Sequence record: MK629526
Source of the DNA: Escherichia phage Lilleen
Direction: 5' to 3' (one strand)
Length of the DNA stretch: 5,342 nucleotides
The notes beneath the pieces were generated by a model that saw nothing but the letters and a program-made list of their open reading frames with translations, was not told the origin of the DNA and made no database searches. Shown here piece by piece: positions 1,715 through 4,236 of this stretch. How positions within the stretch are numbered: position 1 is the stretch's first letter; each line of letters opens with the position of its first letter. The translations under genes were made by a program, and so were the position numbers.

Positions 1715-1892
1715 GGCCGATGCCCTCGACGAGGAAAAATGGCTTAACATGATGGGCGCTCTTCTTAAGGACTGGTTCCGCTACGAAGAACATTTCGTAC
1801 ATGGCAAACAATCTTTAGTTGACATATTAATCGAACGGGGGTTACTATCCCCCACACAAACAACCCGTAACAACAAAGGAAATACCAAATGA
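1632..1892 (+). CDS. C: Protein C (DNA maturation / stage II to III switch)
   Basis: ATG 1632-1634 overlaps the A stop (ATGA). 86 aa '[28 protein letters not shown]...', matching phiX174 C (86 aa). Stop TGA 1890-1892 overlaps the D start. Confidence 0.9.
1819..1848 (+). promoter_or_regulatory. Candidate sigma70 promoter PD (drives D-E-J-F-G-H)
   Basis: Perfect -35 TTGACA (1819-1824), 18-nt spacer, -10 TACTAT (1843-1848), inside the 3' end of C. Same hexamers and location as the phiX174 PD promoter as I recall it. Confidence 0.55.
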
Positions 1893-2344
1893 ACTCCAAT
1901 GAATCGGCTGTAGCCTTTCAAACTGCAATCGCCTCTATCAAAATGATTCAGGCCTCATCTGTCCTCGACCTTACCGAAGACGACTTCGAATTCTTAACTG
2001 GTGACCGTGTCTGGATTGCTACCGACCGTTCTCGCGCTCGCCGTGCTGTGGAGGCCTGCGTTTATGGCACACTGGACTTTGTCGGGTATCCTCGCTTTCC
2101 TGCTCCTGTTGAGTTTATTTCTGCTGTTATCGCTTACTACGTTCATCCGGTCAACATCCAGACCGCTTGTCTCATCATGGAAGGAGCCGAGTTTACTGAA
2201 AACATCGTCAATGGCGTTGAATCCCCAGTTAAGGCTTCCGAGCTCTTCGCTTTCGTTCTCCGTGTCCGCGCTGGCTGTAAAGACGTCCTCGAAGGCGCCG
2301 AAGACAACATCCGCGCTAAACTCCGTGCCCAAGGAATCATGTAA
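1889..2344 (+). CDS. D: External scaffolding protein D
   Basis: 151-aa ORF with very strong similarity to phiX174 D ('VYGTLDFVGYPRFPAPVEFI', 'AYYVHPVNIQTACLIMEGAEFTEN'). AAGGA at 1876-1880 upstream. ATG 1889 overlaps the C stop (ATGA). Confidence 0.93.
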   Translation: MNSNESAVAFQTAIASIKMIQASSVLDLTEDDFEFLTGDRVWIATDRSRARRAVEACVYGTLDFVGYPRFPAPVEFISAVIAYYVHPVNIQTACLIMEGAEFTENIVNGVESPVKASELFAFVLRVRAGCKDVLEGAEDNIRAKLRAQGIM

Positions 2345-2357
2345 ATATTATGGCTAA
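2064..2357 (+). CDS. E: Lysis protein E (MraY inhibitor), +1 frame inside D
   Basis: ATG 2064 preceded by GGAGG at 2050-2054. 97 aa starting 'MAHWTLSGILAFLLLLSLFLLLSLTTFIRSTSRPLVSSWK', an N-terminal transmembrane helix resembling phiX174 E ('MVRWTLWDTLAFLLLLSLLLPSLLIMFIPSTFKRPVSSWK'). The ORF track's earlier start at 2001 is a GTG. Confidence 0.75.
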   Translation: MAHWTLSGILAFLLLLSLFLLLSLTTFIRSTSRPLVSSWKEPSLLKTSSMALNPQLRLPSSSLSFSVSALAVKTSSKAPKTTSALNSVPKESCKYYG

Positions 2358-2436
2358 AGGCAAATCATATCGCCGCGGTTCCGCTGGCAATAAAAAAGGC
2401 TCCCGCCTCTGGTACGTTGGCGGCTCTCAATTCTAA
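2350..2436 (+). CDS. J: Small basic DNA-binding/packaging protein J
   Basis: Hand translation gives 28 aa 'MAKGKSYRRGSAGNKKGSRLWYVGGSQF'. Basic, with the conserved C-terminal 'RLWYVGG.QF' of phiX174/G4 J. Below the ORF-track length cutoff. Confidence 0.8.
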   Translation: MAKGKSYRRGSAGNKKGSRLWYVGGSQF

Positions 2437-2480: not shown

Positions 2481-3806
2481 ATGTCTAATGTTCAAACTTC
2501 TGCCTCTCGTGATGCAATTGATTTATCACATCTGGTCTTCAACACTGGCGCTATTGGTCGCCTTAAAGTCGCATCATGGACCCCTGTTATCGCTGGTGAT
2601 TCTTTCCAGCTTGACGCTGTTGGTGCTTTACGCTTATCCCCTCTGCGTCGCGGCTTGGCTATTGACTCAACTGTTGATTACTTCACTTTCTATATTCCAC
2701 ACCGTCATATCTATGGCGATGCATGGATTCAATTTATGAAAACTGGCGTCGCTGCCACTTCTCTTAACCCTGTAACCACTGGCGAATACGTTGATAGCGC
2801 CTCTTATCTTGGTGTAATCCCTTCCAAAGATGGCAAGGTTCCTAAGTTCCTGCATCAAGGCTATCTCAATATTTATAATAACTACTTCAAAGCTCCTTGG
2901 ATGGCTGACCGTACTGAGGCAAACCCATCTAACTTAAACGACGACGACCGTCGTCATGGCTTCCGCTGCTGCCATCTAAAAAACATATGGTCTGCACCTC
3001 TTCCTCCTCAAACGGAAATCACTCGCGCTATGGATACTGGCGCTACTTCCATTGATATCATGGGTCTTCAAGCTGCCTACGCCCAACTTCACACTGACCA
3101 AGAACGTGACTACTTCATGCAACGTTACCGTGACGTAATCTCTTCGTTCGGTGGCAAAACTCACTATGACGCTGACAACCGTCCTCTTCTGCTTATGCGC
3201 TCTAACTTCTGGGCTTCTGGCTATGACATTGACGGTACTGATCAAACCTCATTAGGTCAATTCTCTGGTCGTGTCCAACAAACATTCCGCCACTCTGTTC
3301 CTCGCTTCTTCGTACCGGAACACGGCGTTATTATGACTCTTCAACTCGTACGCTTCCCGCCTACCTGCACTGAGGAAACTCACTACCTCGTCGGCAAAGG
3401 CGCACTAAGCTATACTGACCTTGCGGGCGACCCTACTCTTTACGGTAACTTACCGCCTCGCGAAATCGAAATGAAAACTCTCTTCCGTGGCGCTGCTGGC
3501 TCTTCTGAAAAAATCAAAATTGCCGAAGGGCAATGGTATCGCTATCATCCTTCTTACGTTGATGGTCAATATCACAACCTTCAAGGGTTCCCGTTCATCC
3601 CAAATGGTCCAACTGGCAACATGGAAAACCGTGTACTGATTGACCATAAAAAATATGACGAATGCTTCCAGTCACTTCAATTAACTCACTGGAATGCCCA
3701 GGCTAAATACAATGTCACTGTATATCGACACATCCCAACTACTCGTGATAGTTACTACTACTATCACAAAGGCCGTCACTCCCGCCGCGTTGGCTCCTAT
3801 TATTAA
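2481..3806 (+). CDS. F: Major capsid protein F (C-terminal 17 aa are out-of-frame read-through into G sequence)
   Basis: 441-aa ORF, AAGGA at 2470-2474 (6-nt spacing). Strong similarity to phiX174 F along the whole length up to '...[14 protein letters not shown]' (codon about 424). After that the reading is '[17 protein letters not shown]' instead of the expected short '...IMTS*'. Those last codons overlap nucleotides that encode G in the +1 frame. Confidence 0.9.
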   Translation: MSNVQTSASRDAIDLSHLVFNTGAIGRLKVASWTPVIAGDSFQLDAVGALRLSPLRRGLAIDSTVDYFTFYIPHRHIYGDAWIQFMKTGVAATSLNPVTTGEYVDSASYLGVIPSKDGKVPKFLHQGYLNIYNNYFKAPWMADRTEANPSNLNDDDRRHGFRCCHLKNIWSAPLPPQTEITRAMDTGATSIDIMGLQAAYAQLHTDQERDYFMQRYRDVISSFGGKTHYDADNRPLLLMRSNFWASGYDIDGTDQTSLGQFSGRVQQTFRHSVPRFFVPEHGVIMTLQLVRFPPTCTEETHYLVGKGALSYTDLAGDPTLYGNLPPREIEMKTLFRGAAGSSEKIKIAEGQWYRYHPSYVDGQYHNLQGFPFIPNGPTGNMENRVLIDHKKYDECFQSLQLTHWNAQAKYNVTVYRHIPTTRDSYYYYHKGRHSRRVGSYY

Positions 3807-4236
3807 TACGCCAACCGTTGCGCGTAACAATCTCTTTGTGAACTTAACTACTACCGCCCTAACTTCTCCGGGCGGTATCTCTGCTGTTGTCGCTATCGAC
3901 AACTCTTCTCATACCGACAATCAGGTTATCTCTATTGCTGCCTCTCTTTCTACTGCTGGCAGTCTAGTACCTGTTCTTTGTCGGTTTGAATCTGCTACTG
4001 TACCAACGGCTATCCCCGCATCTGCGGTTACTTACTATCCGTTGGAATTTAAATTATCTGCTACTGCTCTATCCGTCAAGGACTGCGCTACTGTCTCTAC
4101 TATTTCTCGCTCTGGCAATCCTGTTTATGTAGGTATTGCCCTTATTGCGAAATCATTTATCGCCGATACTGTATACGGCTCTATCTCAATTAATCAGGTT
4201 GACCAAGAAATCACAACTCTGCAACCCCTCAAATAA
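3694..4236 (+). CDS. G: Major spike protein G (canonical N-terminus, RBS and start absent; true start uncertain)
   Basis: G-like sequence runs from about 3766 ('[16 protein letters not shown]...[13 protein letters not shown]...VKDCATV...NPVYVGI...LQPLK*'), matching G4/phiX174 G from roughly residue 15-20 to the C-terminus. Upstream, the frame stays open inside F to ATG 3694 (and ATG 3712) with no convincing Shine-Dalgarno. The expected 'MFQ.FIS.HN' N-terminus is absent. Confidence 0.7.

Follow-up and report, generated by a model that had tools for sequence, protein, structure and literature searches.

The window analyzed here, a stretch of 5342 nucleotides (nt) read on one strand, is the sequence record MK629526 of Escherichia phage Lilleen and covers almost the whole genome of a G4-like microvirus (Microviridae, Bullavirinae), with genes in the order A(A*,B,K)-C-D(E)-J-F-G-H. 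We focus on its gene E, which encodes the lysis protein, and show that the membrane helix of this protein lacks the proline found at position 21 (Pro21) of characterized E proteins, that the same proline-free helix is shared by a natural clade of lytic phages, and that it is under purifying selection. We consider it probable that the clade carries a functional E with a co-adapted helix, that this E continues to act by blocking the lipid I synthase MraY, and that whether Pro21 is needed depends on the background in which it stands.

Gene E occupies positions 2064..2357 of the plus strand (ATG at 2064, TAA at 2355-2357) and comprises 97 codons and a stop; it was assigned from its open reading frame (ORF) and translation, homology, and synteny. 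Its frame is +1 relative to that of gene D (external scaffolding protein, 1889..2344, plus strand), and it starts 175 nt after the D start, nested within D and between C and J, in the position held by the annotated E genes of ID2, ID18, WA3, G4, phiX174, and alpha3. The product of 97 amino acids begins with MAHWTLSGILAFLLLLSLFLLLSLTTFIRSTSRPLVSSWK, and its translation runs MAHWTLSGILAFLLLLSLFLLLSLTTFIRSTSRPLVSSWKEPS...SCKYYG. A Shine-Dalgarno-like GGAGG (2050..2054, plus strand), read from the sequence as a putative ribosome-binding site, stands 9 nt 5' of the E start codon. GGAGG is also found at this site in Lilleput, MG1, SECphi17, and the metagenomic genome L033, and GAGG in Lilledu, lillemer, Lilleto, PJNS002, phiX174, alpha3, and G4; in D this is a silent change (GTG vs GTC/GTT), and it follows the split between Ala2 and Glu2 in E. 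The E frame is open further 5', to a GTG at 2001 (2001-2063), giving an ORF of 118 amino acids with an added hydrophobic N-terminal stretch, of whose use we saw no sign.

At its 3' end, E runs on for 13 nt after D has stopped (2344), which takes it over the start of J (ATG 2350). The initial annotation had described this overrun correctly and set it apart from phiX174, whose E ends 5 nt before the D stop, but such an extension is normal in G4-like phages: in G4 and WA3 it measures 31-37 nt, in the remaining Lille phages 7 nt. The D/J junction itself (2344-2349) has six extra nt, TAAATATTATG, compared with TAATG in the other Lille phages; this WA3-type junction makes the E tail two residues longer (...SCKYYG rather than ...SCNG) and keeps the D stop and J start apart.

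Lilleen E is an ortholog of characterized E proteins. It was matched by phmmer to the E chains 8g01_B (E=5.8e-10) and 8g02_B (E=1.4e-8), the second being phiX174 E in the MraY-E-SlyD 'YES' complex (8G02 chain B), and is 52-59% identical to G4-like gpE proteins (ID8 gpE, HMMER E=6.5e-17). Like phiX174 E, it is encoded in the +1 frame of D and combines a single N-terminal transmembrane helix with a basic proline-rich tail; the two proteins align without gaps and have in common W4-T5-L6, L10-L18, L20, L24, F27, I28, and S37-K40. The closest annotated proteins, gpE of G4, ID8, and WA3 (Gequatrovirus), share with it MxHWTLSGILAFLLLLSL, His3, KPLVSSWK (WA3), and the overrun into J. Residues 1-18 are those of G4-like E with the exception of residue 2 (MAFFT), and F27, I28, W39, K40, and the SSWK motif are likewise conserved. 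The predicted transmembrane helix (codons 10-28, 2091..2147, plus strand; LAFLLLLSLFLLLSLTTFI; mean Kyte-Doolittle hydropathy 2.62) is the only one, contains the WTL...LAFLLLLSL core, with residues 3-18 as in G4-like E, and has no proline.

Codons 19-26 of E (2118..2141, plus strand; TTT CTG CTG TTA TCG CTT ACT ACG) read FLLLSLTT in place of the canonical LLPSLLIM and carry 6 substitutions in 24 nt relative to a stretch that is base-for-base identical in phiX174, alpha3, G4-WWN, WA3, ID2, and ID18. Altogether, Lilleen E has His3 (CAC, 2070-2072), Phe19 (TTT, 2118-2120), Leu21 (CTG, 2124..2126, canonical CCG), Leu22, Ser23, Thr25, Thr26, and Arg29 (CGG, 2148..2150, all plus strand), where the reference phages have R/H/L3, Leu19, Pro21, Ser22, Leu23, Ile25, Met26, and Pro29. 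PhiX174 E carries R3, L19, P21, S22, L23, I25, M26, and P29 at these sites, and the gpE proteins of G4, ID8, and WA3, unlike that of Lilleen, all keep Pro21, Ser22, Leu23, Ile25, and Pro29; position 29 is also Pro (CCG) in PJNS002. The first proline of Lilleen E is Pro34 (CCG, 2163-2165, plus strand). The initial annotation had read Leu21, Arg29, and a first proline at residue 34, and both the codons and ungapped alignments bear this out: Leu21 stands opposite Pro21 codon by codon (phiX174, alpha3, G4, WA3, ID2, ID18), in MAFFT, and in HMMER alignments against 8g01_B and 8g02_B. Its doubt as to whether its one-residue-shifted alignment was wrong, with a proline in fact opposite Pro21, is thereby settled in favor of that alignment. 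A gapped alignment placing a proline opposite Pro21 was ruled out as well, since all aligners returned ungapped alignments with the KPLVSSWK register common with WA3.

In the D frame, the bases over the E helix read FISAVIAYY. All changes in E codons 21-29 fall at third positions of D and are synonymous there (GCC to GCT for Leu21), as had been proposed from the sequence; L19F (TTG to TTT) is the exception and replaces Ala with Ser in D, at the equivalent of phiX174 D Ala79.

The proline-free helix, LFLLLSLTT where the canonical sequence is LLLPSLLIM, recurs in nine other genomes, with identities to Lilleen of 84-98% and the variant block base-for-base identical throughout. These include Lilleput, Lilledu, lillemer, Lilleto, MG1, SECphi17, PJNS002, and the metagenomic contig OBLN01002562.1 (~90% identical), and originate from independent sources, laboratories, and countries (Denmark, China, and elsewhere). 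Lilleput, Lilledu, lillemer, and Lilleto were isolated from Danish wastewater on Escherichia coli K-12 MG1655 (Olsen et al. 2020, PMC7552041) and MG1 comes from China; together these five are 96-98% identical to Lilleen over the full length. The identity is 93% for SECphi17, 83.5% for Salmonella phage PJNS002, and only ~80%, over partial coverage, for recognized Gequatrovirus species. Comparison with G4, alpha3, and G4-like E proteins, as suggested in the initial annotation, thus shows that H3, F19, and L21 all occur naturally; their presence in lytic relatives, which the initial annotation had named as a ground for refutation, does away with the notion of an oddity or defect of a single genome, while the central point, the absence of Pro21, gains strength by holding across the clade.

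In the GenBank phage collection, the variant was found in 7 of 573 Bullavirinae records. The only outlier there, and the weakest BLAST match, Z35638 ('mutE'), is a synthetic construct and was set aside as not being a natural variant. We also scanned three collections with the pattern FPAPxEFIxAVIAYYVHPV, which fixes the D protein and leaves all D-synonymous bases free. Of the helices returned, 231 were canonical, largely from phiX174 spike-in contamination of 'bacterial' assemblies; the remainder comprised one G4-type helix, one further Lille-type genome (OBLN01002562.1), and one new intermediate, the metagenomic contig NFYY01001704.1 (hereafter L058). More than 120 'bacterial genome' contigs of ~5.4 kilobases (kb), L102-L181 among them, are phiX174, reflecting Illumina spike-in contamination of public assemblies, and the 328-kb metagenome contig FUFK010037421.1 (L034-L101) consists of tandem phiX174 copies at a spacing of 5386 nt. 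Canonical or G4-type helices were all that came from two scans of IMG/VR, the second using the upstream helix half as its anchor, and 5.8 billion predicted proteins held no E without Pro21, the best match being ID8 gpE at 59% identity. E is not annotated in any of the seven GenBank relatives (Lilleput, Lilledu, lillemer, Lilleto, MG1, SECphi17, PJNS002). J, K, B, and A* are likewise unannotated in these records, that of SECphi17 having no annotation at all. Small and overlapping genes of the clade are therefore missing from protein databases. The literature searched contained no mention of a natural E without Pro21, although coverage was incomplete and this amounts to absence of evidence rather than proof of priority; the clade-wide Pro21-less E is apparently an unreported variant of a well-known protein.

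Variation among the genomes that lack Pro21 shows that the helix is maintained. Third positions of D vary at 33 of 58 sites upstream of E and at 30 of 54 under the E tail. Over E codons 9-28, by comparison, a single D-synonymous site out of 20 is variable, against 63 of 112 elsewhere (Fisher P=1.2e-5), and this sole variable helix site is codon 17 (S17N in lillemer). Because the helix-coding bases are nearly invariant at D-synonymous sites that are free to change elsewhere, the proline-free helix is under purifying selection. Invariant helix-coding bases are a known signature of E constraining the silent sites of D, and between phiX174 and alpha3 they are identical even though the flanking D is only ~60% identical. 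The E frame, its ATG, and its ribosome-binding site are intact in all ten genomes, at up to 16% divergence; under random synonymous recoding of D, the E frame stays open in only 2.4% of cases. Carrier phages are lytic: the Lille phages were isolated on E. coli MG1655, cultures of SECphi17 are grown 'until culture collapse' with plaque counts as the measure of titre, and on Salmonella PJNS002 produces plaques. Selection, the intact frame, and host lysis by the carriers together indicate that these alleles are functional in nature.

Extant phages also preserve what look like earlier stages of this helix, in a series that runs from the canonical LLLPSLLIM-FIP through LFLPSLLI[M/T]-FIP in G4, LFLPLSLTT-FIP in L058, and LFLLLSLTT-FIP in PJNS002 to LFLLLSLTT-FIR in the Lille phages. 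The G4 protein already carries H3, F19, and sometimes T26. His3 is the normal residue of the G4 lineage, being present in G4, WA3, ID2, ID8, and ID21 (the chain in 8G01), and Phe19 occurs both in G4 itself and in the divergent lineage represented by L058. The L058 contig (1035 nt) belongs to a divergent Bullavirinae lineage, with a D gene ~61-73% identical to that of any phage compared; the D sequence flanking its E helix is ~61% identical to Lilleen and closest to that of alpha3-like phages. Over E codons 10-29, however, the contig is 97% identical to Lilleen, and its E has the same F19, L22, S23, T25, and T26; unlike Lilleen E, it keeps Pro21, Pro29, and Arg3, is 86 amino acids long, and has an alpha3-like tail, so that it apparently represents the state one step before. 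Given this nested series, in which L058 retains Pro21 amid remodeled neighbors, Pro21 appears to have been lost on an already remodeled background, after the neighboring residues had changed, and Pro29 later still. On a fragment of 1 kb, the block in L058 may be shared by descent, recombination, or convergence alike.

Structure predictions are at most suggestive of a change in helix shape. In AlphaFold2 models, computed for E alone from a shallow alignment of seven sequences and informative on helix extent and confidence but not on kink angle, Lilleen E forms one continuous helix over residues 3-32, with a predicted local distance difference test score (pLDDT) of 95 for residues 11-20 and 89 for residues 21-30. 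The canonical G4-like E of ID8 forms a helix over residues 3-26, with corresponding scores of 86 and then 68, confidence being lower past residue 20. This would fit a helix straighter and longer than the canonical one in Lilleen E, and carries no information on binding. The tail is predicted to be disordered in both proteins; in Lilleen, residues 35-97, the predicted cytoplasmic C-terminal part (2166..2354, plus strand), have pLDDT <50. This part is divergent, and its match to PF04517 (Microvir_lysis) remains below the gathering score (19.8 bits vs 25; E=7.6e-4, residues 36-62), whereas phiX174 E reaches 79.3 bits.

For almost 30 years, Pro21 has been treated as indispensable and universally conserved, first proposed as the site of isomerization by SlyD and later as the source of a kink through which E follows the bent helix 9 of MraY. 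The requirement, to which the initial annotation had pointed, is documented. A review that draws on Tanaka & Clemons 2012 describes Pro21 as critical in phiX174 E: substitutions of this proline abolish function, and MraY inhibition is lost when it is shifted to other helix positions (PMC5039524). P21A abolishes lysis by the G4-like E of ID52 (PMC11126076). ID52 E has a canonical helix; overexpression of mraY suppresses its lysis, which reportedly continues in a slyD knockout (PMC11126076), and the death of its P21A variant makes the natural Leu21 of Lilleen notable. A paper citing the cryo-EM work describes E in the solved complex as bent by a conserved transmembrane proline, there numbered 'Pro-19', and lying in a groove beside MraY helix 9 (PMC11812184). 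The existence of a natural clade without Pro21 contradicts the published view of this proline as conserved and indispensable.

Two other residues of Lilleen E coincide with laboratory mutations. The phiX174 Epos mutants, selected on slyD- hosts, speed up E synthesis (Bernhardt et al. 2002, tabulated in PMC4825663); pos6 is G575A, that is R3H, pos5 is G624T, that is L19F (with A79S in D), and pos4B combines both (PMC4825663). Both substitutions reappeared in a separate adaptation, to a host defective in slyD (PMC3324380). Lilleen has the exact base states of G575A and G624T, in agreement with the initial annotation, which had identified His3 and Phe19 as the Epos changes. The match does not, however, amount to a fresh adaptation, as these are traits of the lineage: His3 is wild type in G4-like phages and Phe19 is present in G4. 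The Epos mutants are laboratory suppressors with a canonical Pro21 helix, whereas in Lilleen the same states occur naturally, characterize the lineage as a whole, and go together with another five or six changes in the helix.

In the reading we favor, Lilleen E would insert into the membrane as a single helix with its N terminus outside and its C terminus inside, and would block MraY from a seat in the groove between MraY transmembrane helices 5 and 9, by analogy with the MraY-E-SlyD structures. The co-adapted set of residues would be F19, L22, S23, T25, and T26 together with the replacement of Pro21 by Leu and, in the Lille subclade, of Pro29 by Arg. The bend or flexibility otherwise given by proline may be supplied by the Ser23/Thr25/Thr26 cluster, or may no longer be needed; another possibility is that the changes at residues 19-26 allow a straight helix to fit. 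Serine and threonine in general bend membrane helices. With orthology established and residues 1-18, F27, I28, and SSWK conserved, the same target, MraY, is the most economical assumption.

Several observations weigh against this reading. The results with phiX174 and ID52 imply that on a near-canonical background the loss of Pro21 is lethal for lysis, and the literature searched offered no experiments on any E without Pro21. Seven of the 20 helix residues differ and the C-terminal part is below the Pfam gathering score, so that a changed pose or target is possible; the AlphaFold2 models, as noted, carry no kink angle. On a helical wheel the seven changed positions do not fall significantly on one face (resultant length 0.48, P=0.1 vs random). 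Folding of the mRNA around the E start in phiX174 wild type, G575A, G624T, the double mutant, and eight natural phages, with three window sizes, revealed no consistent change in accessibility of the ribosome-binding site, and hence none that would support higher translation.

A proline-free helix could be functional but different, adopting a new pose on MraY, straight and not following the bent transmembrane helix 9, or blocking cell-wall precursor synthesis at some other step in the membrane; the clade would then have retargeted or rebuilt its single-gene lysis protein. Lilleen E lacks the very residue that MraY inhibition is reported to require and differs at six more helix positions, the bend of E in the solved complex is ascribed to the conserved proline (PMC11812184), AlphaFold2 predicts a longer uninterrupted helix for Lilleen E, and the C-terminal region has diverged below the Pfam cut-off; unrelated small lysis proteins are also known to converge on few membrane targets. 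We nevertheless regard such a change as rather unlikely. Residues 1-18, F27, I28, W39, and K40 are shared with E proteins that target MraY, and G4 and L058 keep Pro21 with most of the same neighbors, which suggests gradual drift on one target. Moreover, Lilleven, an alpha3-like phage with canonical E, came from the same host and screen, so the host demands no new target. It would be very improbable for the E frame of the clade to be a decaying remnant, with lysis achieved by other means: a residue essential in two tested E proteins is missing and E is unannotated in the clade records, but the helix-coding bases are under strong purifying selection at D-synonymous sites, none of the ten genomes has lost the ORF, its start codon, or the ribosome-binding site, the carriers lyse their hosts, and a genome of 5.3-5.5 kb with the standard eleven-gene layout holds no other candidate lysis gene. 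The chance that Leu21 and the neighboring changes are sequencing or assembly errors is practically nil; although the Lilleen record does have an assembly-type defect elsewhere (a gap of 155 nt), the identity of the block, base for base, in nine independently sequenced genomes, including a metagenome, refutes it.

The relation to SlyD is a separate matter. In phiX174, the states seen in Lilleen at residues 3 and 19, as well as the GGAGG site, would be of a kind that raises E synthesis and relieves dependence on SlyD, and Lilleen E is perhaps less dependent on it. Read in this light, as the initial annotation had implied, His3 and Phe19 would mark an E adapted to lyse without SlyD. The bases are those of phiX174 pos4B, which plates on slyD- hosts and makes E faster (PMC4825663, PMC3324380), the subclade has the stronger GGAGG site, and overexpressed ID52 E is reported to lyse a slyD knockout (PMC11126076). 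On the other hand, the entire G4 lineage has His3 as its ancestral state, and G4 and L058 have Phe19 in common, so that these two residues are no evidence of recent adaptation; the Epos effect was measured in the phiX174 context only, in silico folding showed no consistent opening of the E start region, and the C-terminal part that contacts SlyD can still be recognized in the weak PF04517 match. We hold adaptation to lysis without SlyD to be a tentative proposition, somewhat more doubtful than not, while a reduced SlyD dependence of Lilleen E is plausible from its sequence. Searches of the literature on SECphi17 with slyD, and on Bullavirinae with MraY, returned nothing relevant.

The surroundings of E in the window are those of a G4-like phage, with some peculiarities of the record. 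Gene J (2350..2436, plus strand), the first 8 nt of which overlap the end of E, encodes 28 amino acids, MAKGKSYRRGSAGNKKGSRLWYVGGSQF, with a C-terminal motif of the ARLWYVGG type that is presumably common to the annotated J proteins of relatives. At this length, it is longer than annotated G4-like J (25-26 amino acids) and shorter than phiX174 J (38 amino acids). Compared with Lilleput, the Lilleen record is missing 155 nt (Lilleput 3746-3900; junction near 3751, region ~3745-3806), corresponding to the last five F codons and stop, the entire F-G intergenic region, and approximately the first 13 G codons, which deprives G of its start codon and lets the F ORF read on in another frame as far as 3806. 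The gap is probably an assembly artefact, because a genome of that kind would not be viable. At position 4235, directly after the G stop in the G-H intergenic region, Lilleen has one base more than Lilleput.

Protein E is the textbook example of a 'protein antibiotic', directed at a drug target, MraY, that is as yet unexploited. Surveys of E diversity that work by homology miss the Pro21-less proteins, as E is unannotated in this clade and has no database protein. One carrier, SECphi17, whose E is nearly identical to that of Lilleen, is already in wide laboratory use. A natural proline-free E on an Epos background, with Pro21-bearing intermediates still extant, makes the role of the proline directly testable; such a system addresses what the proline does, which neighbors replace it, and whether differently shaped helices block MraY, and the last of these would be useful for the design of peptides and peptidomimetics. 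It is also conceivable, if unlikely, that the proline kink is not intrinsically needed and that a straight helix takes a new pose on MraY, or acts on another membrane target, independently of SlyD. Were the kink indeed dispensable, the series from canonical E through G4, L058, and PJNS002 to the Lille phages would constitute a natural map of compensatory changes.

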